A stretch of DNA of 64,000 bases from Myxococcota bacterium (GCA_963676915.2 CAXXVK010000073.1:1-64000); one strand, 5' to 3'; numbered from the stretch's first letter, positions 3,626 through 23,750 are shown. Translations and numbers: made by a program. The notes: generated by a model from the sequence alone, not told the origin.

Positions 3626-3868
3626 CTATGGATCGTTACCCGAAGGTTTGCACAACCTATCGATGATTCTATCCTGCTTGTCTTCGATACGTTTCAAGCG
3701 CGTCACCAGCAATTCTTTTACATGGCATATTTCACGATCCGTGTACTGATTGGCTTGCCCTAGAGTGGTGGAATATGCGCCGTATGCCACCCCTCCCAAG
3801 GTACTCAGGGAAATCAGAATCGCGATGATCTGCGCCCAGAGGTTGTTTTTTAGTCCACGCATGGTCAT
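3626..3868 (-). CDS. Small single-TM plus coiled-coil protein, holin/XhlA-like
   Basis: ~80 aa; one TM (WAQIIAILISLSTLGGVAYGAY) then RLKRIEDKQDRIIDRL; last gene of the virion cluster. Confidence 0.5.
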   Translation of the reverse strand: MTMRGLKNNLWAQIIAILISLSTLGGVAYGAYSTTLGQANQYTDREICHVKELLVTRLKRIEDKQDRIIDRLCKPSGNDP

Positions 3869-3902
3869 CCTTTCCACGAAAAACACGACAACGTTTTCAT
3901 AA

Positions 3903-4649
3903 TCAGTAGCTGGTCAAAGCCAGCGATGCGTACCCGTGACCGGCAATGGAATCGCTGATTCGAATCACGGTATCGGCCGGTAATGAAGCTTCCAATCCCC
4001 ACCACAGATAGCGAACCGTTCCGTCAATCAACGCTCGCCTCCCCACACCGGGAATCTCGAAAAGATCGCAGCATAGATCGTAATCGGCATAAGATGTGGA
4101 GGTTAGGTCCAACTCCTGTGTAAACATCAACGGATCATCCGGGTTGTAACAGACCCCCAGGCGCAGCTTGGCGGTCTGACTACCCGAAACATGCATTGCG
4201 GTGATACGAGTACGTAAAAAACGAGTCAAAACACCGCGAAGAAACACAAAATTCACCCGGCTTTCTGCCGCGTTCCAACCATGTCCATCCGGCGGTTCGT
4301 GTCCCCAGGCCAAACGATGCTCTTTGAGGAAAATCGGATAATTCCCAGCGGGGTCGCCCGTCAATTCCACGGGTGTGAATGAAGTAGGCGATGTTTCCCC
4401 GATCCATCCCCGGCGAAGGTTCTGAATCACATGCACGGCTGCTCCCATTTCCGAATCTCCGTCCGAACCGCTGTGATCGTGACCGGGAACCACGGACGTA
4501 AGGTTGTTTTCATTTCCGGGAGGAGGCTCGTCCATGATTTTCGCATAAAGCCAATCGAGGTTATCCCTCCAGGCTATCGCCAAGTCTGCTGAAACGGGAG
4601 CACCGGTAAGGAAAGCCCCATTGGGTTGTGGAATGAAACAAACAGGCAT
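3903..4649 (-). CDS. Putative tail spike/fibre protein, GHDH paralogue C
   Basis: 248 aa from MPVCFIP; N-terminal F..P..W.DN..LY..PG..GHDH module followed by a beta-rich region. Confidence 0.55.
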   Translation of the reverse strand: MPVCFIPQPNGAFLTGAPVSADLAIAWRDNLDWLYAKIMDEPPPGNENNLTSVVPGHDHSGSDGDSEMGAAVHVIQNLRRGWIGETSPTSFTPVELTGDPAGNYPIFLKEHRLAWGHEPPDGHGWNAAESRVNFVFLRGVLTRFLRTRITAMHVSGSQTAKLRLGVCYNPDDPLMFTQELDLTSTSYADYDLCCDLFEIPGVGRRALIDGTVRYLWWGLEASLPADTVIRISDSIAGHGYASLALTSY

Positions 4650-4651
4650 AA

Positions 4652-5761
4652 CTACACCTCCACCGTGGCATATACCGGCAACGGAGCGCCGGAAGACAAT
4701 CCCTGGCACCAAATCGCCACGTTGTGGCTATGAATCGGACGATCCGTATAAGGCCAATACGAATGATTGAACTGAAACCGGACACTGAACCTTCGAGGTC
4801 CGGAAGACATTCCCCTAACATCGAACTGCAACCGCTGGTAACCGGGATTGTGCAAGGTAGAACGGCCCCAAGGAAGTTCGCAAGTCGGTCCACTTGAAGT
4901 AGAATCGATATCGTATAACCAGATTTTGTACGCCCAGCGGGCAGCCATGGGAATGGTGAAAGATTCCAGTTCGTTGACACCGGCTTCTCCTTCACGGGAA
5001 TCCTGCTGATCGAACACTGTGTAAGCCGGGAGATATACGTTGAGCAAACGCGCATTGGCAGGCAACACAACCATCAACGTTTCCAGGGCAAGAGAAGGTT
5101 CCCAGCGGTGCAAATAGGCATTTTTATCGGACAAAATCGTTTGCCCCAACCCCGTAATCAGTTTGGCTGCCGTCGCGTAATCCGTAGCATTGACCGGGGA
5201 AGGATAGCGCCAACTCCGAACGAGATAGCGTCCTTCATTACCACCGGCATCCTGCAACGTAATCCAACGATATCCTGCAACTTCGTCTCGAAGATCTTCG
5301 TTCGCCCAAAATCCTTGATCTTCCGTCTTAAGAGCCACGAAAAACCGTCCTAGGCTTGACGACGATGCCTCGCCCGTCCAGTTCGTCAACCCTGAATGGA
5401 TCGTATTGAGGCAACTCGGTCGAAATCGACGATAAAACGCCATTTCCCCAACCAACTCGTCCGATGTGGAATAATCACTCTCGGTCTTTAAAGTAGAGCA
5501 ATAAAACGGATACGTGGAATAACCGAGAAACTGGACGACAGGCCAGGGAATCTTAGCTCCACCATGTTCGGCGTGATCGTGCCCTTGTAACGTACCGCTT
5601 CCACCCGGAACATCCAGATCGCTCGCGAGTTTGTGAAGCACATTGACGTTTTCGGCCATCTGCACCAAACCATCATCGGCCACATGCGGTCCTTGAATCG
5701 GTTTTCCCTCGGTCCATTCCGTAGGAGAGATGGATTTGAAGCTGGTATCGGATACTCCCAT
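4652..5761 (-). CDS. Putative tail spike/fibre protein, GHDH paralogue B
   Basis: 369 aa from MGVSDTSF; start overlaps the upstream stop (TAATG); QMAENVNVLH..VPG..GHDH. Confidence 0.55.
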   Translation of the reverse strand: MGVSDTSFKSISPTEWTEGKPIQGPHVADDGLVQMAENVNVLHKLASDLDVPGGSGTLQGHDHAEHGGAKIPWPVVQFLGYSTYPFYCSTLKTESDYSTSDELVGEMAFYRRFRPSCLNTIHSGLTNWTGEASSSSLGRFFVALKTEDQGFWANEDLRDEVAGYRWITLQDAGGNEGRYLVRSWRYPSPVNATDYATAAKLITGLGQTILSDKNAYLHRWEPSLALETLMVVLPANARLLNVYLPAYTVFDQQDSREGEAGVNELESFTIPMAARWAYKIWLYDIDSTSSGPTCELPWGRSTLHNPGYQRLQFDVRGMSSGPRRFSVRFQFNHSYWPYTDRPIHSHNVAIWCQGLSSGAPLPVYATVEV

Positions 5762-6732
5762 TACAATTCTCCCCATGCCGTGGAATTGAACGAATCGCCA
5801 TTCACTGCGGTATGTTCAGCCGAAGCATCGCGAAATTCGATATTGTCACTCGCGTCCGTCACCCAACCCATCAACCGAAGATTCAACCAGCCATCCGCCG
5901 TGGAGTGGTCGGGAATCCGATACAGTTGTGCGGTTGAAGAACTTTCGCCGTTGAGGATGGACGCACCGGGAATTTGTATATCAAGCCGGGTTGTATCGTT
6001 TCCGCTTTCGACGACATTTTCCACCTGCCAGGTTCCGTTGTTGGCAACCACAGCGCTGCCGGCAACGGTTACCCACTGCCCGACCGCAAACGTTCCTGCC
6101 TTGGGAACGGTATCAAACGTCAACGACACATTGTTTCCTGATAAATATGAAATCGTAGCAATGTCGAGTGGATCGAAATTGAATTCAATTGTATCCCAGG
6201 ATATATAGGCGCTGTCCGCTGTCCGAATATCGGCGGCAACGGGAACATCCCCCTGATACAACCGCAACGCTGCAAAGGTTTCCCGTCCGTCATCGACTTT
6301 GACTTGAACCTGAACGCGATAGGTCAAATTGGAAAGATTCCGGCTCCAGTAGATCGCCGGATGCGGGCTTACCAAGCGGACGCTCTCGGTTTCCGTGGTA
6401 CCGGGCGAACCCGTCGCACAAACGGTCCAGTCCACAAGGTCGTTTTCCCAGTTGCCTTCCCCAATTAATGTAATTGTCTGTTTGTCGAGAAAGGGCAACC
6501 CCAAAGGCTGAATTCTTGATAGAGGCACGGAATTCTCGCCGGAACGCGAATGGTCGTGACCTGAAACCGACACGACATCGTTACCTGGCACAGGACTGCC
6601 CGTCACGTGCTCGTATAAGCCTTGCATTCGTGCTGTGCTTCGATGAGCGCTCCATGAGCACAAAGGAAAATCACTGGAAAACTCTTCCTCGAAAAGAGGA
6701 GAAAAAGGCAGTGGCACAAGATTGGAAATCAT
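5761..6732 (-). CDS. Putative tail spike/fibre protein, GHDH paralogue A
   Basis: 323 aa; LYEHVTGSPVPG..GHDH; internal GQWVTVAG..NNGTWQV beta-barrel insert of a kind common in virion proteins. Confidence 0.55.
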   Translation of the reverse strand: MISNLVPLPFSPLFEEEFSSDFPLCSWSAHRSTARMQGLYEHVTGSPVPGNDVVSVSGHDHSRSGENSVPLSRIQPLGLPFLDKQTITLIGEGNWENDLVDWTVCATGSPGTTETESVRLVSPHPAIYWSRNLSNLTYRVQVQVKVDDGRETFAALRLYQGDVPVAADIRTADSAYISWDTIEFNFDPLDIATISYLSGNNVSLTFDTVPKAGTFAVGQWVTVAGSAVVANNGTWQVENVVESGNDTTRLDIQIPGASILNGESSSTAQLYRIPDHSTADGWLNLRLMGWVTDASDNIEFRDASAEHTAVNGDSFNSTAWGEL

Positions 6733-6743: not shown

Positions 6744-9700
6744 TCAGATCGTGTAGAGGAACGCCGGATCGTCTTCCGAGCCGAGTTTTGCGTATTCGTC
6801 GGCATTGAATACAAGTTGTTTCAATGTTGCATACGACGCGTGATCGTCGTAGACAGACGGCACCAGGACATCCCCGGACTCCGGTAGAACCGGATTTCCA
6901 CTCTCATCCTGCATCGACCAATTACCCATCGTCGCTTCAGTGAAGTTTTCACTTTCGAACCTCAACGAAACGAGGCTATCGCTTGTATCCACCGAATAAA
7001 CAGTCAGTTTACGGGTTCGAAGGAACGTGCCGCTTTCCAAATCAGAGGTTTTGACAAGATATAAACTAGCCCCAGTCCGGATCAGTGACCCGATCTGCTC
7101 CAGGTTTTCGAGATGCTTCGTCGAAACGATTTCGATTTCTCGCACCGTGGGATCATAAGAGTCCACGACACAGGAAAAATTCCATCCCGCCCCCGTTATT
7201 CCTTCAAGCAATCGAATTCTTGCCGTTCGACTCGACAGGTTTTTTTCGATTTCGGAGACGAACCAATGGGTAATCGATGGATCGATTCCCATTTTTCCTC
7301 GACCAACGGGCAACGGTGGGAAATCCAACGTTATGCGATCGAACAAAGCAAGGCGGGAGGCCACGCTCCATGTCGTCTCCAATTCTATCTCGGTTCGAGG
7401 TCGGGAAAAGGCAAAGAGGATTTTTCGGGCCAGGCGATACACATGCATCAATGCTTCAGAAGGACTCAGGCAATCGAGCGAATATTCCAGGTTTTCTTTG
7501 ATTGCACGCGTCAAGCGATTGTTGCGGTTGCTATCATCACGCAACAATAAGCGGCTTTTGTCACCACCTTTTTTCCCCCATTGCATCGATACGGAACCGA
7601 TCGTATCTCCTTCCACATACGATACGACAGGAGGAGACGTTACGGAACCGGCGCTGAAGGAATACTCCGGTGTTTCGTGACGCAACAACGGCTGAACTGT
7701 GCGAAGGCAAAGTTTTCCTTCCGCATCGGTAGCCATCCAGACAAAAAATCCACGACATATATCGCAGGCCAGTTCGAAAGTGCTTTCGTCGTCGCTGGCC
7801 CAGCGGTCGTATGCATTCATTGGAGACAACAGCCTCCCGGCTTCGGTCTGACAGGATAGCTCGGCAACGGAATCGGGGAGGTCGAAAGCATCCAGCAGTT
7901 CTTGCAAATCATCCAGAGGATTCATACCTCCGCGCCATGTTTCACTTACTTGCGTTCCGATTCCATGGAAAAACGTCTTTCCTCCAAGACCTCTTTCCAA
8001 TCCGTACAAAGCATCAAGATGGATTTTGTCTACATCAGTACCCTGAACGTGCGCCGTAGCCTCGGATCCCATCGCCGCTCTTGTGCAATGTTGGAAAATC
8101 GCGATATTTCCCATCTCCAAGCGCGAGTTGCTGAGAATGATGTACTCGTTTTCGATTTTTACGAGATTTCCGGAGTTAAACGACGCACCGTCTTCCAAAA
8201 TCACGGTCGATACTCCCGCATCGGAAAGCGCACGAACCAGAGTCGTCGATGCAAACACATCCTGTTGGGAGCCTCTACGACGATACCGAACAAGCTCCTC
8301 ACCGATCAAGGCATATCCCGGACCTTCCGAGAAGCTTGCAGCTCCGCTGTTGGGATCTTCAGCGAAAGGAGCCAACAACGCAATGTAATCCGTCTTACCA
8401 AACCCGCAACAGTCAACAAGTGCATCGGAGGCTTCCAACGTTGTCAGGGTATCGAGATCGAATTCAATTTCTCTGTCGAACCCCAGTCTTTCGAGCAGGC
8501 TACTTTCGTAAATCTGCGAATCTTCTCGGTCTTCACGATAGGGGTCTGCACGATTTGTGGATTTCAATACAACGTGAATGTTTTGAAAGATGGGGCGGTC
8601 TGCCTGAAACGATAACCACACGTTGCCATTTCGAATTCCCCCGGCGACACTGCAACCCGAAAAATTTTCATCCAAACCTCGAGCCAGCGATGTAACAATG
8701 TTTCGATCCGTCCCGAGAGAGGATTCGTGAATATCGTAAAACCCGCTCGGTATCACGACAGGAATGAAATTGAAATTATACGTTTGCCCACCAAAAGTCT
8801 CCGTGGTCAAATTCAGGTAAACTCGATCGTTTGCTTGCCATTCTCCATTCACGAATCGGTTGTCTATCCACACGGCATCTGCAAGCTGCGCCGTTCCACG
8901 GTTGCGATTTACAGGCGTATCCAACATGGCCAGCAGCGATTGAGCCTCCAACGCAACGCTTGTCGCACTTTCAGGCTCGACACGCACAAGGACGCCACTC
9001 CAAACGATGCTACCCCCTTCCCGGATCTGTATCACACGACCCGCAAGAAACGGATTGCCCGAAAAAACCTTGGTGCTTTCCGTATGATCGTTCGACTTTG
9101 TAAAGCACGCTCCTCGCGTACAGGAAGAAAAGACATTCCCCGTTTGATCCCCGAGAACAACGCATTCACTTCCAAGAAAGATTTTCTGTCCAGTCTCGAA
9201 TCCGTTGCTGTCGCCCAACTCGATTTCGGTATCTTCCGGCCCGAGCGCCTGAACCAGCAGTGTCGAGGTTCGATCCATGCCATACAAATCGAATTCTTCG
9301 GTCCACCGATGGTTCAAATCCACGAGGTACAACGTCATACCGTCGAGATCGGTTTTGCCCTCTTTCAAATTGACCCGTTGTGAAAACGATTCGCTGGACC
9401 GTTCGATATCCAGATAACGCGAAGGAATACTTCCCACGCCTTCTACTTCGATTTCGATCTGATGAGGATTCCAGAAACGTCCGACAGACAGGTTGAAATC
9501 GGCATCGACAACAGCGGCATCACAAACCAAGCGGTACACACGATCGTGAATCTGGTGTGAAACCCGCACATCGATGGCTATAATCTCAAGGGGTTTTCCC
9601 GGTTTTGTAACGAATGTCACCGAAAGCGGAATTTCATCCTCGCAGGATAGCCATTGGGCCGAGTCCGAATAGTATTCCAATTGCCAGTGCGACAGATCGG

Positions 9701-9797
9701 TAAGCGATACGATTTGGTTCCTCGGCACGGATTCGTCGAGTTCGATCCTCCATTTCATGCCGATGGCAATAGTTCTGGATCTGAATCTACATGTCAT
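6744..9797 (-). CDS. Baseplate hub / tail-tip (Tal-like) protein
   Basis: 1017 aa after the Dit-like genes; hub-like segments (WSGVLVRVE, FFVWMATDAEGKL, FDRITLDFP) and repeated RG...H..GT.V modules. Confidence 0.6.
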   Translation of the reverse strand: MTCRFRSRTIAIGMKWRIELDESVPRNQIVSLTDLSHWQLEYYSDSAQWLSCEDEIPLSVTFVTKPGKPLEIIAIDVRVSHQIHDRVYRLVCDAAVVDADFNLSVGRFWNPHQIEIEVEGVGSIPSRYLDIERSSESFSQRVNLKEGKTDLDGMTLYLVDLNHRWTEEFDLYGMDRTSTLLVQALGPEDTEIELGDSNGFETGQKIFLGSECVVLGDQTGNVFSSCTRGACFTKSNDHTESTKVFSGNPFLAGRVIQIREGGSIVWSGVLVRVEPESATSVALEAQSLLAMLDTPVNRNRGTAQLADAVWIDNRFVNGEWQANDRVYLNLTTETFGGQTYNFNFIPVVIPSGFYDIHESSLGTDRNIVTSLARGLDENFSGCSVAGGIRNGNVWLSFQADRPIFQNIHVVLKSTNRADPYREDREDSQIYESSLLERLGFDREIEFDLDTLTTLEASDALVDCCGFGKTDYIALLAPFAEDPNSGAASFSEGPGYALIGEELVRYRRRGSQQDVFASTTLVRALSDAGVSTVILEDGASFNSGNLVKIENEYIILSNSRLEMGNIAIFQHCTRAAMGSEATAHVQGTDVDKIHLDALYGLERGLGGKTFFHGIGTQVSETWRGGMNPLDDLQELLDAFDLPDSVAELSCQTEAGRLLSPMNAYDRWASDDESTFELACDICRGFFVWMATDAEGKLCLRTVQPLLRHETPEYSFSAGSVTSPPVVSYVEGDTIGSVSMQWGKKGGDKSRLLLRDDSNRNNRLTRAIKENLEYSLDCLSPSEALMHVYRLARKILFAFSRPRTEIELETTWSVASRLALFDRITLDFPPLPVGRGKMGIDPSITHWFVSEIEKNLSSRTARIRLLEGITGAGWNFSCVVDSYDPTVREIEIVSTKHLENLEQIGSLIRTGASLYLVKTSDLESGTFLRTRKLTVYSVDTSDSLVSLRFESENFTEATMGNWSMQDESGNPVLPESGDVLVPSVYDDHASYATLKQLVFNADEYAKLGSEDDPAFLYTI

Positions 9798-9798
9798 T

Positions 9799-10581
9799 TC
9801 AATCCACCTCCGTGAACGAAAGAGCGACGGTGCCGTAACGAGGCTGTGGAGCCGCCCATGTTGCGGAATGCTTCAAATCGAACGTCTCCGGCAACAACCG
9901 TATCCATCCGTTCGAACTGCCTGCAACCACATCAGCATCCGATTGCCAGCAAAGGTCCAGCAACAAAGCCGGAATACCGGGTACCTCAACGTTCGTATTT
10001 GCAATCATCGACGAAACCATGCTTACAAGACGGTTCCACTGGGTATCAGAAAGAGCTTCGAGTGTGAGCCGCCTTGTTTGGGACATTCCGTTCAACGTCG
10101 CCTCCACATTGCCGGAGATCGACGTACCGTGACTGACGTTGGGATGTATTTTCCCGTAATCGTGAAACGAAACGCCCTCTGAAATCAGCACGTTTTGAGG
10201 CGAGTTTTCGGAATTCAATGCATCTACATTCGTAAAGGCATAGCTGTCCGGCGTATCCGAGGCGGTTTTCGAAAAGCCGCAAAGCATTCCGATGTGACTG
10301 GAGTCGGGAAATCGCAGACGACAATCCGCCGCCACTTCACTTTGAAATCCCAGCTTCGTTCGAACCTCTTCCCCATTCGAAGAACGCACGATAGACCAAC
10401 GGAACGCAGTATGGACCGTTTCGGACTGTGTTTGCATGGTCGCAAGGAGATCGGCAAACGTTGGATACGTTCCAGCATCCACCGATACGTTCTGGTAGTT
10501 CGCTCCGCCATTCACGGACAATTCCCAAGCTCCGCAGTCCTCTTCGACCACAACCGGAGCATACAAAGCGATGAGGTTCAT
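9799..10581 (-). CDS. Distal-tail (Dit-like) protein, paralogue 2
   Basis: 260 aa between TMP and hub; ends in VALSFTEV; resembles the upstream gene. Confidence 0.45.
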   Translation of the reverse strand: MNLIALYAPVVVEEDCGAWELSVNGGANYQNVSVDAGTYPTFADLLATMQTQSETVHTAFRWSIVRSSNGEEVRTKLGFQSEVAADCRLRFPDSSHIGMLCGFSKTASDTPDSYAFTNVDALNSENSPQNVLISEGVSFHDYGKIHPNVSHGTSISGNVEATLNGMSQTRRLTLEALSDTQWNRLVSMVSSMIANTNVEVPGIPALLLDLCWQSDADVVAGSSNGWIRLLPETFDLKHSATWAAPQPRYGTVALSFTEVD

Positions 10582-11309
10582 GATTTCACCAGCAAATCCA
10601 AGCTAAAGGAGAAATAGGTGCCGCTATCGTTCCACGAAACATTCGGAGTGTGTGCCCCGGAAGAAAGAACGTAGGTTCCGACTTCTTCGAGACCATCGAA
10701 AAGTCTAATAGGCATATAGCCTTCCACAGCCCGATCGTTGGAAGACGCCATGGTGTGCCATAGTCGAAAGCGTTCGTATTCTTCGGCAGGAACCCAATCC
10801 ATGCGCATCCGAACGGTTCGCCGAGATCCAAACCCCGCCGCTATTTTTTCACCACTGGCCGCCAGGGAGGATTCCACGGTGGATTCCAACCCTTCCGGTG
10901 CCACATCGCACAATCCATGAGAAAACATCGCCCAGGGCTTATGGGATGCTGTGTGGCTCGTAGACAACTCGTAGGTTCGTGCGCAACTGAAACCGATCCA
11001 TTCCCAAAGCATGTTCTGCTGGGATACAAGCAAATCCTGCGCCGCAAACAGCGGTTTCCATGCCTCCGGTCCCGTGATCGAAAAATGTCCGCACTCCTCC
11101 ATCACCCAAGAAAATCCAGGGCTTCCCAAAGAAGCGCTTTCATTCATGCGGCTGCAAAGGTTATCCAGCAACATGAACAAACTTGTTGGTGTTTGAGACG
11201 ATACGGAGCAAGAGTACTCGTTTTCCCCCACAGCGAACCGAAGACTTGTTGCGTCGAAACCATTCGTCACATGCAACAGGGAATGCAAATGAAGCGATTT
11301 CAAGCCCAT
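10578..11309 (-). CDS. Distal-tail (Dit-like) protein, paralogue 1
   Basis: 243 aa from MGLKSLH immediately after the TMP stop; ends in FSFSLDLLVKS. Confidence 0.45.
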   Translation of the reverse strand: MGLKSLHLHSLLHVTNGFDATSLRFAVGENEYSCSVSSQTPTSLFMLLDNLCSRMNESASLGSPGFSWVMEECGHFSITGPEAWKPLFAAQDLLVSQQNMLWEWIGFSCARTYELSTSHTASHKPWAMFSHGLCDVAPEGLESTVESSLAASGEKIAAGFGSRRTVRMRMDWVPAEEYERFRLWHTMASSNDRAVEGYMPIRLFDGLEEVGTYVLSSGAHTPNVSWNDSGTYFSFSLDLLVKS

Positions 11310-11310: not shown

Positions 11311-12195
11311 TCACACCCCCAACACTTTTGCAGGTGTCGAAGAAGCCGTAGAACCGTAGCGGTCGAGAGAATCCAAAACGGCACGAGCCAATACCGGACC
11401 ATCCGAGCGACGCCCGACGGTCGGGGAATAATTCAGCGTCAGGTACACCACGTTCGATTCACCCTGCCCGGAACTCTGACCCATCAACGAACCGGATGAA
11501 CTGTACGTATTCACTCCGTAGGAGGGAGCGGTATACACCGGTTGCGAAATGGACGACCCCGCCGAACCACGCCCCGACCCACTTCGTGCAAGAGCACTGG
11601 ACAAGGCGATCATCACGCCACCGGCAGCGATCAACGCTACCGAAGCCGCCATCGCGCCAAACCAGTTTCCACTGAAAAACGAGAGCCAGGCTTTGCTGGC
11701 AAACAGCAACGCCGTACCCAGCGCAACCATCGCCGTACCGACGATCTTGAGAAAGTCGGCCAGAAATTCCTTCATCGTGATCGGTGCGGAAGAAAACAGC
11801 GACCCCAAATACTGCATCAGCAAGATGTAGCTTTGCGTCAGGCTCTGAGCCACGGTCGATGCGAAGGATCGAGCGATCTTTTCGTTGTAGGAGAGTATGG
11901 CCTGCGTCTTCTGGCGCTCCAGCTTATCCTGAGCGATCACCTTTTTACGGGTGATTTCGATTTCCTCCTCGGCCAATCTTCGTGCCGAATCCAAACGCTC
12001 CTGTTCTCCCGAGGTTTCGTTCTGACCACTTATTTCCGCCGTGGCTCCTCCAAGAACACCGGCAGCCTGTTGATAACTGTCCACGATGGACTGCGCGCCC
12101 TGAGCCAGTTTCTGCCAAGCCTGCCATAGTTTCTCGTTTCCACTCCCTTCGACCGTAGAACCGGAATTACCGGCCGAATTTCGTTGGTACGCCAT
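11311..12195 (-). CDS. Short tape-measure protein
   Basis: 294 aa from MAYQRNS; Ala/Gln-rich helical N-half, hydrophobic Ala/Gly-rich segments, NVVYLTLNY C-terminal strand; follows the chaperone pair. Confidence 0.65.
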   Translation of the reverse strand: MAYQRNSAGNSGSTVEGSGNEKLWQAWQKLAQGAQSIVDSYQQAAGVLGGATAEISGQNETSGEQERLDSARRLAEEEIEITRKKVIAQDKLERQKTQAILSYNEKIARSFASTVAQSLTQSYILLMQYLGSLFSSAPITMKEFLADFLKIVGTAMVALGTALLFASKAWLSFFSGNWFGAMAASVALIAAGGVMIALSSALARSGSGRGSAGSSISQPVYTAPSYGVNTYSSSGSLMGQSSGQGESNVVYLTLNYSPTVGRRSDGPVLARAVLDSLDRYGSTASSTPAKVLGV

Positions 12196-15325: not shown

Positions 15326-16017
15326 GGTGCCAGCCTCGCCGTGGCCAGAGTTTTTTCGACCTCCCCTACCCCACCGCTTTCGGCATCGACACGAACGGAG
15401 GACAAGAAACGTTCCAGCTCGTTTTCGTACCGGTCATGTGTGGCTACGAATTTATCCATGTAAATGTCGTCGCCATGACTCATCGAGAAATACATCCGAG
15501 CCTGCGCAAGACTCAGTAACAGCCGGTCGAGCCACACCTGGTCGTAAACGGTTCCCGGCCAGATGCCATCCTGTTCGAGCCGTAGCCGCAATTCGATTTC
15601 GGAGGTTCCAAGCACTTTTTTCCGCGTCCAGCCATCCGGGTCGTGAGCTTCGAACGACGGGTCCATGTCGGAAAGATCTTCGCCCGACACGTTGGGTGTC
15701 CAGGTTTTTCGACTGACCCGAAATCCCCTTACAACCGTGGGGAGACTGTCGTATTCGACCGTTGCACGGTACCCGTCGGAAACGGTCCATGGCTGTGGAG
15801 ACGATGTATTCAGGCTGCAATAGCAAACGCCATCGTCCCCATTCCACAGCATGGCTTTTTCTGTAACAAGAGCGTTTCCGTCCGGATCGTTCACCGTCAA
15901 AAGGGCTTGCGGGTTTTCTTCCACCTCACCCCACGAATCGGTAGGAACGACCCAAAACGTCGTGGCTGGCTCATCCGTCGGGATTTCCCGTGGAAAGAGA
16001 AGATAACTGTGTGCCAT
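15322..16017 (-). CDS. Putative head-tail connector (adaptor) with N-terminal Ig-like domain
   Basis: 231 aa; beta-rich N-half, helical C-half; 4-nt overlap with the next gene. Confidence 0.45.
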   Translation of the reverse strand: MAHSYLLFPREIPTDEPATTFWVVPTDSWGEVEENPQALLTVNDPDGNALVTEKAMLWNGDDGVCYCSLNTSSPQPWTVSDGYRATVEYDSLPTVVRGFRVSRKTWTPNVSGEDLSDMDPSFEAHDPDGWTRKKVLGTSEIELRLRLEQDGIWPGTVYDQVWLDRLLLSLAQARMYFSMSHGDDIYMDKFVATHDRYENELERFLSSVRVDAESGGVGEVEKTLATARLAP

Positions 16018-18355
16018 GTCGTTTCCCTTTCTTGGTTACGCGATCGTTTCCCAGGTTTTTGAATTGTGGTGGTACTTGAGCGTAACGGCCTCGTTTTGTG
16101 AAAAAGCTTTGGTCGCCGAACCGCCGATGGTATCGCTTTCGTGAATTGCGAAACGTCGCGGCTACATCCGGAGCATGCGTCCATGAGGACGACACCGTGG
16201 CTTTCCAATATTCCTTGGTCGTAGCCGAGGTATCGCCGCTAACGTCGGATGCCTCAAGACCGGCAGCGGAGATCGTAGCCGTAGAAGGATCGGTATCGTC
16301 TGAAAACCCCGTAAGGCTTCCGTCCGCAAAATCGCCATCATCACTCGTCAACGAACTCTGCGTAAACGTCAACCAGTCTGTACCGACACCGGCAACGACA
16401 ATACCGGAATGCTGGCGGCGACTCAGAGTCAGCGTGTTGGCACCTTTGGACAACACCGACACTTCGAGCGCATCTTCTTCGGAGGCCACACTCGGAAGAT
16501 ACAGTGTAAGGTTGCTCGAAGATGTGTCCACGCGCAGGCATTTTCCTTCGCACTCGCTTACGGCCAGCACATCCTGGTCGTTTGCTGCCGTTTTTTCGAG
16601 CCATGCGAGCCGCAGGTTCCTTTTTTCGACCAACTCGCCACTGATTTTCTGGGCCGACCAGAGATCGGTCGTTCCCGAAGCGGCGTCGTCGATTTCCCGG
16701 TGAGTATCCGTGCTATCGACATGCGCCCGCAATTCAGAAGCAGAAACTTCGTTGGCACCGCCCTCGTCGAGCTTCGCATCCGTTCCGCTCGTATGACGTA
16801 CAGCAGTGTTCGCCGCCACATCGGTATGCGCCGTGATGCTCGCCGTCATATCGGTAACATCTGTCGCCGTGTGCGTATGATCCTTATCGGACTTACCGGA
16901 AAGACCATGATCCACCACGGCAAAGGGAATTTCATCCGTTCCCAAAGCATAGGCAAAAGCCGTACCGTCGGCGACATTTGCAAGCAACTGATCCAACGGT
17001 CGTTCCACAAATTTCTTGCCCGATAGCGTCGCCGCATTCAGCACGCGTCCGTCAAAGCAGGAACCGATGTACGCGGACACCTCATAGTTTTCCGCAGGTT
17101 CTGGAAATACAGGCGTATTGTCCGTTGTGTGATGAAACGCGATGTCCCAGGTATAATCGTCCGCTCCCTGGTTCCAACTGTCCCACACGCCCTCGTAAAA
17201 GATGTCGTGGTAGGGGTAACCGCTGGCTGTATGCAGGTTGTCCGTGTTCGTATACGAAGCGCCACGGGTATGAAGCGTTTCCGTTCCTTCCGCTCCATTC
17301 CAATACATTTCTATCACGATGAAAAAGTATTCTTCGTTTGCAATACCGCTTACGGATTGGAACGGAAACTCGGAAACGAAGGAACCACTTGAGTCGATCT
17401 GCCCTTCCAACTCCCACGATACCGTGCCGATGGGAGGCGTACAGTTGTACCATTCCGTCTCGCCACGAACATCCGTCATATTCGGAAGACCGCTGCCATC
17501 CACACCCACGACGTAGAATTTGAAATAGAGCGAGCTGGAAATTGCCGCCACAGTTTGGAGTTGTGCCTCTGAAACGCTTGTCGGATAGATCGTCGCAGCG
17601 TCGTACGGTGACGTTCGAACATTGCGCATTTTTCGGCTCGTCTTACGACGTCGGTAGGCACTGCTCGGACCGCCATTGTCGATTTTATCGTTTGCCGTAG
17701 GGTGGCCGTAAACCTGCTCTACAGTTGTTAATACCGCCATACACCGGTCGAAATACGCCGGTTTCCTTATGGTGTTCGATAATGGCAAGCCGGTTGATTC
17801 CAGAAGCCAGCGGGAAACCGTACCGATCAGGTGCGCTGTCGGCAGCAAGCCACGCATAGCCTTCAACGTTTCCCAAGGATGCAGGATCATCGCCATCCAA
17901 TGTACCCGTCGTCAGATCGAGTTCGACCGTTCCCCCGGATTTCAGCCGTGGTACCGTCGTTTGCGGGTAACGTCGCCCTCCGACCGTCCCGTTTTCAAAC
18001 ACACGCAGGCCGGGAAGAATTCTCAAACGACAATCCGCTTCCGGAGCGTTTTCATACACGAGTAGCGAGCCGGGAAGATGATTTTCATGTTCTGCAAAAT
18101 CCTGACAGAATCGATCTCCACCGATGTCTTCGACGCACTCCAAAACTTTTGTGCATCACCCGTTCCAGCGTCGTCATCCAGTGCAAGACCACTGTCGGCC
18201 AAATCGCCGCTTTCATCGAAACTCGCAAGGTTGCCGTCCGTAGCCTCATCCACTTTTGCTGCTTTATCGCTCAGCAAGGAATCGGCCTGTTCTTTCGTAT
18301 AATAACGATCGTCGTTGGTTTTCGGCGGCACCCAGCGAATGTTGGATGTACCCAT
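15971..18355 (-). CDS. Long virion fibre/decoration protein, split by apparent frameshifts (ORFs 18023..18355, 17685..18143, 15971..17896)
   Basis: Fibre motifs DDRYYTKEQAD, two copies of DD....WSA.K, and DHTH; GGAGG RBS before 18355. Exact boundaries uncertain. Confidence 0.5.
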
Positions 18356-18364
18356 CGTTACCTC

Positions 18365-18659
18365 CTAGTTGTTGAACGAAAGCACCATGCGCCACGGTTC
18401 CGGTCGTGGCTGTCACGTTTCCACGCACCTCGTACCAACCGAAATCTTCGATGTGGATCGCCGTGTCGTCCGTCTCGCAGGTTTCGAGCGTCATCCAGTT
18501 TTCGTTTTTCTGCCGTGCCTGCAACTCGACCGTCGCCGTATCGGAAATTCCGATCGTCACGATGTAACGCCCATGTCTACGGCGATTGAGCTGAAACGCC
18601 TCACCGGAACCGGTTGTATCGACGTCGTCAAGCAGGATCACTTTGTGCGAATAGCTCAT
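18365..18659 (-). CDS. Small beta-sandwich virion protein (head decoration-like); 3' end probably frameshifted
   Basis: MSYSHKVILLD..ATVELQA..WYEVRGNVT; an alternative-frame TAG at 18365-18367 directly precedes the next RBS. Confidence 0.4.
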
Positions 18660-18778: not shown

Positions 18779-18804
18779 GGAGAGAGGGGAGGACATACCT
18801 CCCC
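18779..18804 (-). terminator. Putative intrinsic terminator downstream of the capsid gene
   Basis: GGGGAGG-TATGT-CCTCCCC hairpin followed by pyrimidine-rich TCTCTCC on the minus strand (weak U tract). Confidence 0.4.
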
Positions 18805-18880
18805 CATGAGAAGAGAAACAAGAGAGAAGGAATTCACGAGCTTATTCAACACATGAATTCCCATGGAAGGTTGAGTCGGA

Positions 18881-19816
18881 TTATCCAACCGCCTTGGTCA
18901 CGCCTTTCAGACGCGCCGCCGCTTTGGAATGCAGGATGATGATGCTCGCCGCCCATTCGATGACGGTGAGGTATTTCATGTCGGACTGCAGGCCCATGTC
19001 GATCACGTCCATCATCTTGTTCTGCACGCCACAGAGGTATTCCTCCGCTCCGAAACGCACGGCATAGATGGACCGGTGTCTTCGTCTTCTCCCTGCGTTT
19101 CGTCGAATCCCAGGATGGTATTGCCTTCGTGGTCTTCTTCGATCACACGGATAGGAACGCCGCCGTAGTGGCTGCATTCCCGGCCGAAAGCATCGGGACC
19201 GTAACAGATGCGGCTGTCGTTGCGCAGCAGTTTCGAAACCTCGCGACGCATGGCCTTGCTCATCAGCAACATGTCCGGTCCGCCGCTGACGGCATCGCAG
19301 AGGTCGTCGAGCATATCGGTGGTCAAGTCGGCGCCATCGGCATCCGACGCACCGCCCGCGTACAGAAGTTGCGACCCGGTCAGACGAGCATTGAGACCGT
19401 CGACTGACGGGAGTCTTCGCCGGAGTTGCCGTCGAAGAACATTTTCGTAAAGAAAAGTGCCGCCGCTTTGGCTTTGAGACGATCGTGTACAGCTCGGACG
19501 GCTCCAATGCCCAGGCCATCGGCACCTTGCCCACGCGATTCGGCCAACACCTTGTCCACTTTCGATTTTCCACCGAAAATCTTCGTCGTCTCGACCAACT
19601 GTTGGAGCACACCGGTGGATTCGCTGTAATCTTCGTTGATTCCACGAAAAGCGATACCGGGAAGCGTGTCCTCACGGTTGTAGATGAAACTGCCGCCGGG
19701 AACGTCGATGAACGGCAGAGCTTCGAGAATGGAGAGTTGTAAGGGAACGTGACCACCACGTTTCGTTTGACATGATCGTCGATCAGTTTCGAGGCTTCCA
19801 GTAAAGTCAGTGCCAT
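18881..19816 (-). CDS. Major capsid protein (HK97 fold, epsilon15 gp7-like); three apparent 1-nt deletions
   Basis: Joining frames gives MALTLLEASKL..ILEALPF..YNREDTLPGIAFRGINE..QFDGLNARL..SIYAVRFG..AAARLKGV (~312 aa). Confidence 0.85.
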   Translation of the reverse strand: MALTLLEASKLIDDHVKRNVVVTFPYNSPFSKLCRSSTFPAAVSSTTVRTRFPVSLFVESTKITANPPVCSNSWSRRRRFSVENRKWTRCWPNRVGKVPMAWALEPSELYTIVSKPKRRHFSLRKCSSTATPAKTPVSRRSQCSSDRVATSVRGRCVGCRWRRLDHRYARRPLRCRQRRTGHVADEQGHASRGFETAAQRQPHLLRSRCFRPGMQPLRRRSYPCDRRRPRRQYHPGIRRNAGRRRRHRSIYAVRFGAEEYLCGVQNKMMDVIDMGLQSDMKYLTVIEWAASIIILHSKAAARLKGVTKAVG

Positions 19817-19819
19817 TGT

Positions 19820-20281
19820 TTACCTCCATGGCTTCGGGGTTTGATTCGCAGCGTAGGCATAGGCCGCACGCCGCTGAATGGTTTGAGGATCGAGCGATAG
19901 CGCATCCAAATCCGCCGTGCGCCGCGCTTCCGTAGGAAAACGGGGCGGAGCATTGGGCGTTTGTCCGCGAAATCGCTTCAAAAGTTTTTTCGAATCTTCG
20001 GCGGCTTCGAGATCGTCGAGAAACCGCGCAGGGGTTGATGTATCACCGGGTTCGTTGTTTTTTCCGATCCAATCTTCGAACCGGCTTTTCAGGGTATCGA
20101 TAGATATTGGCACGAGGTTTCTTCGCGCCATCGTTTCGAGAACCACACTCCACGACGCTGCAAAATTATTTTGAGAAGGTTTCCGGCTTGCGGTTTCTTC
20201 GTCGGGATTTTCACGAACCGGCGAATCGATCTCTTCCGACTCGGACGAACCGGCCTGTCCTTCCATAGTCTCCACTTTCAT
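19820..20281 (-). CDS. Putative capsid scaffolding protein
   Basis: ~150 aa charged/helical protein immediately upstream of the MCP; its end contains the MCP RBS (GGAGG). Confidence 0.5.
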   Translation of the reverse strand: MKVETMEGQAGSSESEEIDSPVRENPDEETASRKPSQNNFAASWSVVLETMARRNLVPISIDTLKSRFEDWIGKNNEPGDTSTPARFLDDLEAAEDSKKLLKRFRGQTPNAPPRFPTEARRTADLDALSLDPQTIQRRAAYAYAANQTPKPWR

Positions 20282-20304
20282 AGCCACTCTTGATTTTGGG
20301 ATTG

Positions 20305-20343
20305 AAAAAAAACGGGGCGACGATGGATATCGCCGCCCCGTTT
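20305..20343 (-). terminator. Strong intrinsic terminator between portal and scaffold genes
   Basis: Minus strand AAACGGGGCGGCGAT-ATCC-ATCGTCGCCCCGTTT followed by TTTTT (8 U in total). Confidence 0.7.
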
Positions 20344-20473
20344 CGGGCTTGTTCGCGGTTTTTTGTTTCGGACGCAAAAGTGCTTGATCGATAGTTCAGC
20401 ACATAATCACGAATCGTTCAACGCAACGATTCTCAACAATTGCGCCGAAAAGGAACAAGACGTTCCGAAACGT

Positions 20474-21904
20474 TCACGATTCGTCCGTTTCGTTCTCGTT
20501 TTCCTTTTCCTCCAAGTCCTTGCGCGCCGTTTCCCGGTCCTGGCCATGATCCTCGGCGTAGAAAATCGTAGCGATCCGCCGTGCCGAGTTCGATTTCGAT
20601 CCGCCGGTTCTCCAGCACTTCGTGCCGCGAAAGCGGAATTTCCGCCTCGGGAAAAACGGTTGCGGCTTCGAGATCCTGCAAAGCAACGAAATCCGTCGCA
20701 AAGGGATCGAACATTGCCGTAAGTTCGAACAGTCGCCGCACCACCTGCGTATCGGCCCTTTGCCAGATCGGTATCATATCCTGGCGGTATTCACTTCGCA
20801 TTGCTTGTCGTGGAACTTCGCCACTCCGATTGTACCCTTGGCTCCAGGCTGAACGTGGATGTGGAAAGGCCGTGGTTCTGCGCGAAAATTTTCAGGAAGA
20901 ACTGCAAGTTCTCGTTGCGCTCACTTTCACGCGTTTGAACGGGAATCGGTTCGAGTCTTTTATTCTCGTCACCCAGACAGAAAATCGCGCCCGCTCCCCG
21001 TCGCCGGGTTGAGCTGCCCCAGTTCGGAGAGCGTCCCGTTGTAAACATACGCCGGAAAATCGGCCTGTCGCGTATTGAGTGCCCCCCGCGTCAGTTCGTG
21101 ATCGACCAGCGTGAAGCATGCAGATATTCGTGCGGAAACCGTCGGGAAACATTTCACTGCCCGGCAATGCCACTTTGGACACGGCAACAAACGGATACTG
21201 TGAAAACTCCGCTTCGTTGTAAGCGCGAATCCAATCCGGCTGATCCCGCATGGGCAGCGGTTCGAGTTTTCATCGCACAACGTAACCTGCACGACTCTCG
21301 CACCCTCCCCCGAAATTTTGTATTTCAGGTGACGCACCGGCGTACTCGCGCCCTGCCCTACTCCGTCCGGTGCGCCTCCCAACGGCACGGCGATCCACCG
21401 CGCAGCCGCCAGATCCTGCGGGTTGTCCGGGTCCGGTTCGACGAGTAGATCGTGCGCAAACACGCAGCGCACCCGCGCCTTTCCAGCAACGGGATCGGCC
21501 TGTACCCACAACACGATGCAGTTGAGCAACTCACACCAGCGGTTCGCCCATTTCATCGTCTCGTTGAGATTGGCCGCAGTAAGGTAACGCTCGACCAACG
21601 CCGTATTTCCGAATGACTCGCCGTTCTCGTAAAAGCGCCGCATCGGCTTTTTCTTGTAGATCATCGCCTTGGTATCGACGATCCGCTTGACGACGTTGAG
21701 GCGTAACAGGTTTTCGCTCATCAAGGCGGCGTTGTTTGGATACAGCGTCTGAAGTCTACGGCGCAAATCCAGAATGCTGTTTCCGGTATCCAGATAGCGG
21801 TCGATCAACTCCTCGGCAGCCGTCACCCAATCGCGACGTGACGCCCACTTGGTTTCGATCAAGGCACGTGGCACGGCCTCGGTCGTGTTTCGGTTCCAGA
21901 ACAT
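20474..21904 (-). CDS. Portal protein (SPP1 gp6-like), split by several apparent frameshifts
   Basis: LNVVKRIVDTKA..Y.K.P.R, YPFV, then a C-terminal part with E.R..FP and ELG..D..D; start overlaps the terL stop; ORFs 20969..21907, 20892..21251, 20791..21048, 20433..20801. Confidence 0.75.
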
Positions 21905-23272
21905 CAAAATCCTCCGTGAATGGTTACGGGATGGCGATGGCTTTGGGCCATACTGTCGGCAATGAAGTAGTCCAGTGCATCTCCGGGGTGATCGATTTCG
22001 AAACGTTTGTCCGACGGGTCGGCAATCTTCAACTTTCGCCAGGTTCCAGGATGCCAGCGCGTCAATTCCAGTGATTTAATCAACGCCTTGCAACGCGGAT
22101 GCACGCGCAGCTTCGGCGCTCGTCCGATTTCCTGCAACGACAACCTGACGGCGGCGGTACGCTCTTTGATCGGCGGGTTGGCGCGACCTCGTACGGGATG
22201 AATCGTCAATTGCGATACACCGCCCAGCCATCGACGAATGGTGTCGTAATCGCTTTCTAGCCCGCGATGACTCCGGCTGTAGCCCGATGCGTCTCCGTGC
22301 ACCTCCACGGGACCGCTATGGCGAGCCACCGTAGGATTGGCCAGCACGGCACGGCAGAGGTCGTTGGTATCGCATCCACCGCGCAACACCACCTCATCGA
22401 TCAGAGCCGTAACGCCTTGCGGCCATTGCTGAACAGCAGACAGAACATGAAATCACGTTGAAATCGAACGACAGATGCAGCGGTAGATCGTCCCGGTAAG
22501 ACAGTTCCCGGTCGATGTGTTTTTCCCTGTCGAAACCGGCGTACACCCGTTTTCCCTGCATCGAACCGGTTTTGCCTTCGATGTAGACCTCCCGGTTTCC
22601 TTCGTCGAGTTGATTTTCCAGCATGTTTACGACTCGGGTTGACGTTCCAGCAGAAACGATTTTCCCGCGTGGACGCCTGTATGAAACGAATATTTTCGGG
22701 CGCTTCAGGATCTTGGAACACGTCGTACAGCCAACCGGGATCTTCCTCGGGATTGCCGGTCAAAAACAGCCGGTAGACCGGTTTCGGTTTACCGGAACGT
22801 CCCGGAATTTCGTAACGTAAACGGGACAACAGCACCATGAACAGCTTGTGCGAAATCTGCGACGCTTCCTCGACGTGAATCCAGTTGAATTCGCTCGACA
22901 GCAACCGCCCAGGATCGGACAAATGCCGAAAGCGGATCTCGGAACCGTTGGTCAGCCGCAGGTTGTCAGGATTTTTCGACCAGCTTTCGATCATTCTGCG
23001 CGGCGTCAGTTCTTCCCATTTTCCACGCGTCGTGTCGCGCAGCAGCGTGTAATCCCTTGCCCCAACCAATCCTCGACTGTTTGGAACGTATACGCCAGCA
23101 TCAGGCCAAGCAATACACCCACCGTGGTCTTTCCCGCGCCGACACCGCCTTGGTAAAAGCAGATATCCGTGTCAACGTCGTGAGGAATCTCCACGAACTC
23201 CACCTGCTTTGGAAGCAGGTCGAACGACCTTTTTCGGATCTGCTCCTCGGATAAGCAGGCATTCGATTTCAT
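21904..23272 (-). CDS. terL: Terminase large subunit, split by apparent frameshifts
   Basis: LLPKQ Q-motif, Walker A GGVGAGKT, Walker B WIHVEEA, coupling motif LTGNP, nuclease SFDFN, HGDASG, DHPGDALDY across four ORF pieces. Confidence 0.9.
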
Positions 23273-23750
23273 CGCCTTTTCCTTGTTGTTTTGTCGAACC
23301 GGACGTTTTTGCACAGTGGCGCGACATGGCCGAGTCCGCAATGGCCCAGAGATTTTTCAGCGTTTTTTCGTCCAGCTTTTTTCTTCGCCGTTGGTGGCGT
23401 CTTCTTCCATGCGCCGAAGCAGGCGGTCCACGAGAGCAAGAACCCGATGGGAAAGCTCTCGCTGCAATGCGGGATCAGCAGGCAGAGAATCATCCGTACC
23501 GTCCTCGCCTCGTTGCTCGCAGATTTTTTTGTAAAGCCAGGCTCGTTTTTTCCACTCGAATCGAGCGCCGTTTTTCGAAAGAAAAAATGCGAAACGCCCG
23601 TGTCTCCCCCGAACGTTCCCATGCCGTAGAAAGTACGAGATCCTGTACGATGATCTTTCGACGACAACGAAGCAGTCCGGGAGAGAGGTTTTCCTCTCCC
23701 GAAGCAAGCGCAAGCGGATGCGTCACCAACGCGAATCGTGGTTGCATGAA
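23190..23750 (-). CDS. Possible terminase small subunit (frame unresolved)
   Basis: Position directly upstream of terL; helical segment LQRELSHRVLALVDRLLRRMEE in ORF 23357..23713; boundaries approximate. Confidence 0.35.

Follow-up and report, generated by a model that had tools for sequence, protein, structure and literature searches.

Gene transfer agents (GTAs) are known as a handful of lineages, and detailed work has been devoted almost entirely to those of Alphaproteobacteria; the characterized examples named in a recent report derive from Rhodobacterales, Desulfovibrio, Brachyspira, Bartonella, Caulobacter and Methanococcus (PMC12946183). Among the very few elements described there from outside Alphaproteobacteria is FpGTA of Faecalibacterium, a genus-conserved, podovirus-like candidate GTA which is specified by two operons of 10.5 and 5.5 kb located ~125 kb apart and for which a packaging size of 8.4 to 8.9 kb was measured (PMC12946183, Nat Commun 2026), and the same report lists PBSX as a GTA-like element packaging 13.4 kb of random DNA (PMC12946183). 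No GTA of Myxococcota or of myxobacteria was apparent in the literature searched at title and abstract level. The present analysis concerns a phage-like head and tail locus at positions 3626 to 23750 of a 64,000-nucleotide (nt) stretch of DNA from a Myxococcota bacterium (GCA_963676915.2, CAXXVK010000073.1:1-64000; here termed the window), which constitutes the first 64 kb of a 72.6-kb contig in a metagenome-assembled genome (MAG) of 5.18 Mb, 74 contigs and 91% completeness (G000). It is proposed, with a probability of about 0.65, that this locus represents a domesticated siphovirus-derived particle factory, probably ancestral to an uncultured Myxococcota order and inherited mostly vertically. 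As selection has kept it intact in most of the genomes of that order that were examined, and on its gene content, it is a good candidate for a new, independently evolved GTA-like particle.

The organization of the locus resembles that of RcGTA in that both comprise head genes and a siphovirus-type tail cluster lacking integrase, replication and lysogeny genes, and both are clade-wide, single-copy, under purifying selection, host-like in composition and equipped with a short tail. Components of RcGTA are located at more than one locus, as are those of one genome of the order studied here (G003; see below), and the RcGTA locus spans roughly 15 kb, compared with 20 kb, in a Myxococcota host, for the present locus. 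No sequence-family link between the two was, however, apparent: at E <= 0.01 the cluster matched PF04466 only, in addition to two sub-threshold Pfam matches, its major capsid protein (MCP) belongs to phrog_212, its tail tube is a 422-amino-acid (aa) protein, probably of the double-domain, T5 pb6-like type, and no prohead protease was recognized. An RcGTA virion chain (6tba_50) ranked 29th, with an E value of 0.038, in the Foldseek search with the tube model, where it represents the generic tube fold. Homology to the RcGTA structural gene set was not found by Pfam, PHROG or fold evidence, in a comparison which held no direct RcGTA-sequence search and in which the head genes were scanned against Pfam only in their frameshifted window form. 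This outcome agrees with an earlier note on this DNA, in which the gene set had been judged to differ from that of RcGTA, suggesting an independent origin.

PBSX likewise represents a conserved chromosomal phage-like element, tailed particles with random host DNA being described on the PBSX side. Its tail is contractile, and a repressor and lysis genes form part of its own cluster, in contrast to the present locus, which specifies a tube of the non-contractile type and harbors no recognized regulator or endolysin gene. As with the ~125-kb distance between the FpGTA operons, 130 kb separates the portal and large terminase (TerL) genes from the tail genes in G003; the siphovirus-like, 20-kb locus of the window differs from FpGTA as that element is described. 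The tail proteins share likeness with those of T5 and lambda, with a tube fold match (Foldseek E values of 1.6e-6 to 8.5e-5) and with a 1017-aa protein which probably corresponds to the pb3/J tail-tip proteins (E values of 1e-5 to 7e-3), but the tape measure of ~240 to 297 aa points to a much shorter tail, and no other T5 or lambda gene was matched.

Organization and composition of the locus

The phage head and tail block spans ~20 kb and encompasses ~22 co-oriented genes, every one of which, from 23747 down to 3626, is located on the minus strand. Its gene content includes a putative small terminase (TerS), TerL, portal, a scaffold-like protein, MCP, connectors, tail tube, short tape measure and J-like hub, followed in the 3' part by three fibre-like genes and a small membrane protein (Table 1). 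Start/stop overlaps at 15322-15325, 10578-10581, 9797-9799 and 5761-5776 support translational coupling of several of these genes. At one end, the stop of the last cluster gene lies 9 bp from a convergent cNMP-binding gene; at the other, the first cluster gene starts ~250 bp downstream of a bioF-like aminotransferase gene. Matches to integrase, repressor, replication or endolysin families were absent among the cluster and flank proteins, and no prohead protease, sheath, endolysin or regulator was recognized within the cluster (Pfam and PHROGs in both instances). The G+C content of the locus (53.4%, compared with 52.0 +/- 1.8% across 222 genome windows of 20 kb) and its tetranucleotide distance (77th percentile of genome windows) are ordinary for the genome, and its composition is thus host-like. 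These findings uphold the reading of the earlier note, which had described about 20 co-oriented, translationally coupled structural genes from terminase to a holin-like gene, with coordinates and layout that proved right, between the same two host boundaries, with no integrase, repressor, replication or endolysin gene in either flank and with a composition that looked host-like by eye.

The hallmarks of a temperate prophage, i.e., a linked integrase or recombinase, a repressor, a replication module and att sites, were not encountered. Nor does the locus correspond to a tailocin, being neither tail-only nor sheathed, and TerL, portal and MCP are present and conserved. It represents a phage-derived structural cluster without replication, integration or lysogeny genes which, with the exception of one discordant genome (G009), appears to have been maintained by the host lineage through vertical inheritance and purifying selection.

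Conservation across an uncultured Myxococcota order

The order is represented by 10 species genomes, all of them MAGs, within a phylum sample of 401 Myxococcota genomes. All 10 hold at least a piece of the locus, ranging from the whole cluster to a single TerL fragment, and a single-sequence search identified the tube gene in 8 of these 10 and in none of the other 391 genomes of the phylum (8 of 401 in total). In line with this restricted distribution, no more than 9 of 1.84 billion protein representatives reached E <= 1e-30 in a tube profile search. In G001, a species of the same genus as G000, the whole locus aligns at 70 to 76% nucleotide identity on a 3.3-Mb contig and is bordered by the same host genes on both sides, while a 9.1-kb contig of a 94%-identical relative from another study bridges portal and TerL into the same bioF-like, ClpX-like and S8 genes. 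The cluster is thereby present beside bioF and clpX in close relatives, a check which the earlier note had put forward; its location, of which that note had regarded variability as contrary evidence, is constant within the genus and differs across families.

In G004, G005 and G007, which belong to a sister family, the genes from TerL through the final fibre gene are arranged in the same order, with amino acid identities of ~70% for MCP, ~50% for TerL, 39 to 46% for the portal and 23 to 44% for the tail genes. In G006, a further genome of that family, this order is maintained throughout the 20-kb contig, which stops within the first fibre gene; G009 harbors the tail module on a 10-kb contig, and in G008 (79% complete) a 2.6-kb contig bears a TerL fragment. 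The copy in G002 is divergent (25 to 32% identical), retains the same order and gene sizes, and is located between type IV pilus genes and larC. On the one contig of G003, the tail module adjoins glnA, ATP synthase and oxidoreductase genes and is preceded by an MCP of another PHROG family, and portal and TerL, in the order portal-TerL, are found 130 kb from the MCP and tail genes.

Host genes flank both ends of the locus in the seven genomes with sufficiently long contigs. Both flanks are common to G004 and G005, which represent different genera, with a PlsC-like acyltransferase upstream and CarboxypepD_reg and sigma-54 activator genes downstream. In G007, where proC is among the upstream genes, the G004/G005 flank genes are not adjacent, the sigma-54 activator orthologue being located ~268 kb from the locus and acyltransferase candidates elsewhere than the locus; this look for an empty site, therefore, yields no evidence either way on insertion or excision.

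Apparent gene disruptions

Within the window as assembled, TerL is split over three to four frames and the portal gene over three open reading frames (ORFs), the MCP gene exhibits three separate 1-nt deletions relative to its 84%-identical G001 counterpart, and frames are likewise split in the 769-aa gene of the cluster and in two host genes, ClpX-like and S8. This broken appearance, together with the number of genes lacking family annotation, is what would be expected of an old defective prophage remnant, functionless and not yet decayed. The breaks are, however, assembly errors rather than decay, because independent contigs from this population show insertions/deletions (indels) relative to the window at frame switches. 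Logan contigs from three runs within a single study match the window except for indels of 1 to 2 nt, at 12 listed places between 16151 and 26568 and at 22 more beyond those listed, and the contig indels at 16151, 19730, 23084 and 26568 are situated no more than 20 nt from frame switches relative to G001. For MCP, the contig supplies at 19730 one base which is absent from the window; for TerL, the contigs carry an extra A behind 23084; and for the portal gene, five indel differences occur at 20562-21265. Furthermore, substitutions in MCP relative to G001 keep the third-codon-position pattern of the G001 frame throughout, RpoB on another G000 contig is intact and open over 1377 aa, and every cluster gene is intact at the same site in G001. 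A pseudogenized remnant was rejected on the basis of the assembly indels and intact orthologues, and the case illustrates how local assembly errors in a MAG can mimic pseudogenes.

The indel-rich interval from 16151 to 26568 affects phage-like and host genes alike, while the rest of the window and RpoB look clean, and it looks like a local consensus-quality problem of the source MAG. As the window errors are local, the intact G001 genes were taken as stand-ins for the head module. The five contig joints listed have sides of 22 to 30 nt and map to the host flank (23800-29147) or have their start there.

Selection, phylogeny and linkage to recombinase genes

The ratio of nonsynonymous to synonymous substitution (dN/dS) was obtained for the pair G000 and G001, in which 18 cluster genes were computable. 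Values ranged from 0.037 to 0.21 for 17 of these, the scaffold-like gene being the exception (0.44), and from 0.077 to 0.21 for four host flank genes, at a synonymous divergence (dS) of 0.7 to 3.8, i.e., at or near saturation. TerL, portal and MCP were among the best conserved (0.037 to 0.13). All orthologous ORFs are open in G001, as are nearly all in G004, G005, G007 and G002, with a few irregular lengths in G004. The locus is, accordingly, under purifying selection like the host genes, and the relaxation which the earlier note had named as contrary evidence was not seen. A defective remnant is already contradicted by these open frames at saturated synonymous divergence and by the host-like dN/dS, and is considered most improbable.

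The RpoB tree resolves (G000,G001), (G006,G008) and (G004,G005,G007,G009) with full support, and trees of concatenated tail and head proteins recover (G000,G001) and (G004,G005,G007), also with full support. The comparison of phage and species trees, another check that had been suggested, therefore returned the main RpoB clades, G009 being discordant. In a tree of 41 MCPs drawn from genomes and IMG/VR, a single clade (Shimodaira-Hasegawa-like approximate likelihood ratio test, SH-aLRT, 100) unites the five MCPs of the G000/G001 genus and the sister family, and grouping of the G002 MCP with these five was not rejected (approximately unbiased test, p = 0.58).

Tyrosine recombinase matches (PF00589) were absent, among the matches listed, from the window contig and from within 25 kb of the locus in G001, G004, G005, G007, G002 and G003; none was found on the cluster contigs of G006 and G009, and most PF00589 matches lie >400 kb from located copies. 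In five genomes scanned for serine recombinases, no PF00239 match was located within 500 kb of a copy. A search for direct repeats bracketing the locus, including the att repeats anticipated as a sign of a prophage, found none.

With regard to phage relatives, the MCP family is widespread: proteins 35 to 53% identical to the MCP occur in 20 genome loci of other phyla, and 193 stretches in IMG/VR hold MCP relatives, the best 80 of which are 37 to 50% identical. The tail genes of the locus are absent from those 20 genome loci and from the 80 best IMG/VR loci with a related MCP. The tube protein had no match in 50,697 phage records, and none was found in IMG/VR, where close relatives only were searched.

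These data bear on the alternative that the locus is the structural module of a still-mobile virus or satellite system, with the other genes located elsewhere or on a helper and the DNA of that element preferentially packaged. The parts in G003 may work from separate loci, if working at all, the genomes are rich in recombinase-bearing elements (e.g., ~100 PF00589 matches in G001), and G003 and G002 each have head modules unlike those of the other genomes, all of which such a system would accommodate. Nevertheless, all cluster genes other than the 769-aa gene are single-copy in G000, no linked recombinase was found among the matches listed for the nine genomes with a located copy, the same site has been occupied since the two species of the genus split (dS of about 1 or more), and none of the 80 IMG/VR loci carries the tail genes. 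A mobile module of this kind is regarded as distinctly unlikely.

Evolutionary history and proposed function

The distribution and conservation of the locus fit capture of a phage before or early in the radiation of the order, since kept for host benefit. The suggestion of the earlier note that this is a domesticated, structural-only particle in a deltaproteobacterial-type lineage is borne out by the shared site, the order-wide presence, selection, the lack of recombinases and the split loci.

Several observations weigh against domestication with mostly vertical inheritance. The locus occupies at least five chromosomal contexts across families, and an IS4 transposase gene is located upstream of it in G007, so that related phages may have integrated repeatedly. 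In the tail tree, G009 is placed on a long branch apart from the genomes with which it groups by RpoB; as signs of exchange with phages, the MCP of another PHROG family in G003 and the extreme divergence of G002 are both compatible with module exchange after the order diversified. Vertical descent alone does not account for this history, as is shown by the varied contexts, the discordant placement of G009 and the head modules in G003 and G002, which are foreign or divergent. The count of 0 of 391 derives from a search with a single sequence of a fast-evolving protein, and the tube profile search of the 1.84 billion protein representatives retrieved 157 relatives at E <= 1e-3, those 157 being distant and not assigned to an origin. 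The nearest phage MCPs come from phages of 50 to 131 kb, and for this reason a small head cannot be assumed; by analogy with these phages, and in contrast to classical GTAs, all 20 kb of the locus may fit into the capsid. No endolysin or regulator was recognized by Pfam or PHROGs in the cluster and flanks, and the proposal as a whole draws on genomic data.

It is proposed that the domesticated locus codes for all that is required to assemble a DNA-filled tailed particle, with functions for packaging, head and tail and, possibly, release via the small membrane protein. It codes for no excision, replication or lysogeny. As the locus would be unable to replicate or excise, its terminase would have to package whatever DNA is present in the cell, and heads would be filled with fragments of the host chromosome. 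The retention of TerL, portal and capsid genes, which are the best conserved, suggests that filling of heads with DNA still matters; a locus that fills its heads with host DNA in this way would fit the definition of a GTA-like system. Such particles would carry DNA to related cells, as do GTAs, or at least bind them, in the manner of PBSX, and the host would control expression of the locus, perhaps with an internal terminator or antitermination step downstream of the portal gene. The gene content is the basis on which packaging, release and transfer are predicted.

A particle which acts as a weapon, i.e., a bacteriocin-like, PBSX-type "phibacin" which adsorbs to competitors or prey, kills them and in which DNA packaging is a by-product without productive transfer, would leave the same genomic signature as a GTA (structural-only, conserved and selected), and PBSX itself is listed as GTA-like in the report cited above. 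The fibre and 769-aa genes diverge fastest, their products being 23 to 28% identical in aa sequence from one family to the other or lacking a match altogether, as would be expected for target recognition. In contrast, conservation of TerL, portal and MCP at the dN/dS values given above would be needless if the tail alone mattered, and no lysis cassette or regulator like that of PBSX is present in the cluster. A weapon is, on balance, considered unlikely.

Beyond domestication, a more far-reaching version may tentatively be entertained: the whole order may have kept its own GTA since its origin, derived from a siphovirus with a T5-like tube and independent of known GTAs, which would package host DNA and move it between kin and which, in one lineage, would operate from two loci under host control. 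If true, the social and predatory Myxococcota would thereby acquire their first known GTA, a new instance of convergent phage domestication, and it would indicate a DNA-exchange route in a phylum noted for social behavior. A sequence-unrelated, order-conserved lineage would add an independent case of phage domestication and would allow tests of common rules such as loss of packaging specificity, short tails, gene dispersal and host control. What appears to be new here is a putative GTA logic with an unrelated gene set in a new phylum.

Packaging and head genes

Table 1. Predicted features of the locus and its host flanks, with positions in the 64,000-nt window (MFS, major facilitator superfamily; cNMP, cyclic nucleotide monophosphate; TM, transmembrane segment)
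Feature	Position	Strand or location	Support
Putative small terminase (192 aa in G001)	23175..23747	-	Three frames in window via assembly indels
Large terminase TerL (456 aa in G001)	21907..23272	-	PF04466 1.7e-12
Portal (about 476-526 aa in G001)	20477..21910	-	phrog_533, weak (0.0069; G001 copy 0.0012)
Hairpin, 16-bp G+C-rich, then T8 (terminator-/attenuator-like)	20309..20344	-	Between portal and scaffold genes
Scaffold-like protein (152 aa in G001)	19823..20290	-	60% aa identity to G001; between portal and MCP
Major capsid protein MCP (312 aa)	18881..19816	-	phrog_212 2.1e-7
Small conserved 97-aa protein	18366..18659	-	81% aa identity to G001; dN/dS 0.144
Variable 769-aa protein, function not assigned	16036..18355	-	49% aa identity to G001
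Conserved 232-aa protein (connector or neck, by position)	15322..16017	-	dN/dS 0.126
147-aa protein (connector or tail terminator, by position)	14882..15325	-	51% aa identity to G001
Major tail tube protein, probably two tube domains (422 aa)	13587..14855	-	AlphaFold2 and Foldseek
HslV-family (Ntn-hydrolase-like) protein, 178 aa	13049..13585	-	phrog_1040 1.6e-13
169-aa protein (tail assembly chaperone, by position)	12568..13044	-	dN/dS 0.138
126-aa Cys-rich protein	12167..12547	-	Cys motifs in translation; dN/dS 0.144
Probable short tape measure (294-297 aa; 240-245 aa in G004/G005/G007)	11311..12195	-	Sequence look and position
243-aa protein (distal tail, by position)	10578..11309	-	64% aa identity to G001; dN/dS 0.080
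260-aa protein (distal tail, by position)	9799..10581	-	54% aa identity to G001; dN/dS 0.172
Probable baseplate hub/central fibre, 1017 aa (1018 in G001), lambda J/T5 tail-tip like	6744..9797	-	
323-aa fibre-like protein, GHxH motif	5761..6732	-	71% aa identity to G001; dN/dS 0.055
417-aa fibre-like protein, GHxH motif	4652..5890	-	71% aa identity to G001, aa 1-417
322-aa fibre-like protein, GHxH motif	3903..4871	-	71% aa identity to G001, aa 1-322
Small membrane protein (~80 aa), candidate lysis/holin/spanin-like	3626..3886	-	One N-terminal TM and charged coiled-coil-like tail
MFS and spermidine-synthase fusion	52-3030	Host flank	Pfam
cNMP-binding protein	3155-3616	Host flank, convergent to cluster	Pfam
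Class I/II aminotransferase (bioF-like)	24000-25358	Host flank	Pfam
Short ClpX-like AAA+	25938-26997	Host flank	Pfam
MopE-repeat/S8 protease	27090-30142	Host flank	Pfam

About 15 structural proteins of the locus lack family annotation, and PDB sequence-profile searches returned nothing for the tube, hub, 769-aa protein, HslV-like protein or portal. The first ORF of the cluster, which aligns in three tblastn pieces with its G001 counterpart and has positional equivalents of 173 to 191 aa in G004, G005 and G007 that are similar to each other, had no Pfam or PHROG family match, and is putatively assigned as TerS by position only. TerL is identified more firmly, with matches to phrog_2 (2.1e-16) and other TerL PHROGs on three separate ORFs and with four tblastn pieces of 60 to 85% aa identity to the intact G001 gene; its maximum identity to any phage record is 27%. 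The portal gene was delineated by tblastn with G001 over aa 1-526. The designation "SPP1-like" previously applied to this portal is unconfirmed, since no solved portal was matched at E <= 0.1 in the PDB profile search.

The hairpin between the portal and scaffold genes was the strongest terminator-like site in the terminator scan, and the same hairpin and T8 are found at the same place in G001 (L011, about 13450-13490). This conserved element could be an internal terminator, attenuator or RNA-stability element separating packaging from capsid and tail genes. The product of the following gene had no Pfam or PHROG family match, and a scaffold role is suggested by position only.

The MCP is 90 to 98% identical to its G001 counterpart across three frames (dN/dS 0.037), and its closest phage relatives are Paenibacillus and Bacillus phage capsids (46% aa identity). 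It had formerly been termed "epsilon15-like", a label that did not hold: the protein is a phrog_212 member, and the PDB profile search at E <= 0.01 gave 8cjz as sole match and no epsilon15 capsid chain, a negative that is valid only if such a chain is in the searched PDB set.

The MCP stop is directly followed by a conserved non-coding stretch of ~230 nt, which contains a GGGGGAGG/CCTCCCC hairpin (about 18660-18880, minus strand). The G000/G001 alignment in this area shows non-coding-like conservation followed, from an ATG, by a third-position substitution pattern. A 160-aa ORF after MCP was rejected as a gene (dS 0.19, dN/dS >1), the real gene being the 97-aa ORF, whose product shares motifs with a 92-aa protein of G007. 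The 769-aa protein gave a weak match in one of three sister-family genomes checked (G007, 25% identity), where the ORFs are shorter, and its Atlas leads are all <= 0.84. Paralogues of this protein are present in G000 at C29:41540-42850 (47% over aa 29-478, in a low-GC part of the contig) and, weakly, at C48:19156-19467.

Tail genes and candidate release gene

The 232-aa protein has orthologues in all eight genomes checked and no family match, and the 147-aa protein, for which saturation precluded a dS value, has weak matches in G007, G003, G006 and G009. The AlphaFold2 model of the tube protein was built on an 8-sequence alignment (mean pLDDT 63, pTM 0.68), and its Foldseek top 10 consists of tail tube or tail-tip chains only, mostly T5-like and double-domain, including T5 7qg9_A (1.6e-6), T5 pb6 5ngj_A, DT57C, P74-26 8ed0_A and SH-Ab15497, with TM-scores of only about 0.3 and 7 to 10% sequence identity to T5/lambda-type chains. 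The model thus indicates a tail of the siphovirus, non-contractile type rather than a podovirus-type stub.

The HslV-like gene, recognized in the earlier note, is real in that it matches phrog_1040 and has a dN/dS of 0.086, but it appears to be an insertion seen only in the G000/G001 genus: in G004, G005, G007 and G003, no match to it exists and there is no room for it between the tube gene and the next gene. The ClpX-like gene of the host flank was rejected as its partner or as part of the element, since this short ClpX paralogue is 62 to 65% conserved in G003, G004 and G005 at unrelated loci. The paralogue (352 aa in G001) lacks a zinc-finger domain, and the genomes of the order hold beside it a canonical ClpX (44 to 46%) and an HslU-like gene.

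Orthologues in G004, G005 and G007 are 37 to 44% identical for the 169-aa protein and 39 to 41% for the 126-aa protein. The 294- to 297-aa protein has no family match and is considered a probable short tape measure; it comprises a charged coiled-coil-like stretch, long hydrophobic Ala/Gly/Leu segments and a Ser/Gly-rich tail, and its gene sits between the tube/chaperone genes and the hub genes. As tail length scales with tape measure length, a tail of a few tens of nanometers, roughly 35 to 45 nm, would be predicted. A programmed (G/GT-like) frameshift between the 126-aa and 297-aa genes was considered and rejected, since the 413-aa ORF of the window merely reflects a frame that is open upstream; overlap of the two genes occurs in G001, but in G005 and G007 they are 11 to 16 nt apart.

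The 1017-aa protein, with orthologues in seven genomes, is a probable J-like hub: the Foldseek top seven of its low-confidence model (pLDDT 62, pTM 0.41) are tail-tip chains of T5, lambda and Chi (TM <0.1), and an Atlas lead points to the TipJ family cluster (0.86). Of 12 fibre-like proteins from four genomes, 8 carry the GHxH motif (mostly GHDH) in their N-terminal part, where it may represent a metal site of trimeric fibres. The small membrane protein, which has a hydropathy peak of 1.86 and no family match, is of the same build as proteins closing the cluster in G001, G005, G007, G002 and G003, and none was recognized at the cluster end in G004. A conserved protein with a single TM and coiled coil thus stands behind what had been called a holin-like gene, its lysis role being a guess.

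Additional observations

A sigma-70 scan returned 5 sites, versus 12.3 in shuffles, and none in the gap upstream of the cluster. Low-GC patches are present elsewhere in the window, at 38000-40000 (45%) and 57000-60000 (41 to 42%), compared with 52% for the genome, and may be islands. In the 7.1-Mb G001 genome, many of the ~100 tyrosine-recombinase matches form identical repeated sets of two or three adjacent genes, which points to a highly multiplied recombinase-bearing mobile element. The separate portal/TerL site of G003 (C1:3329500-3332700; L080, 7565-10651), at which these two homologues stand alone, adjoins a gene for a 980-aa PD-(D/E)XK nuclease-domain protein, and the G002 copy holds, between the J-like and last fibre-like genes, a 100-aa ORF (L081 3992-4294, G002:C2, minus strand) which looks by eye like a Phd/YefM-type antitoxin.

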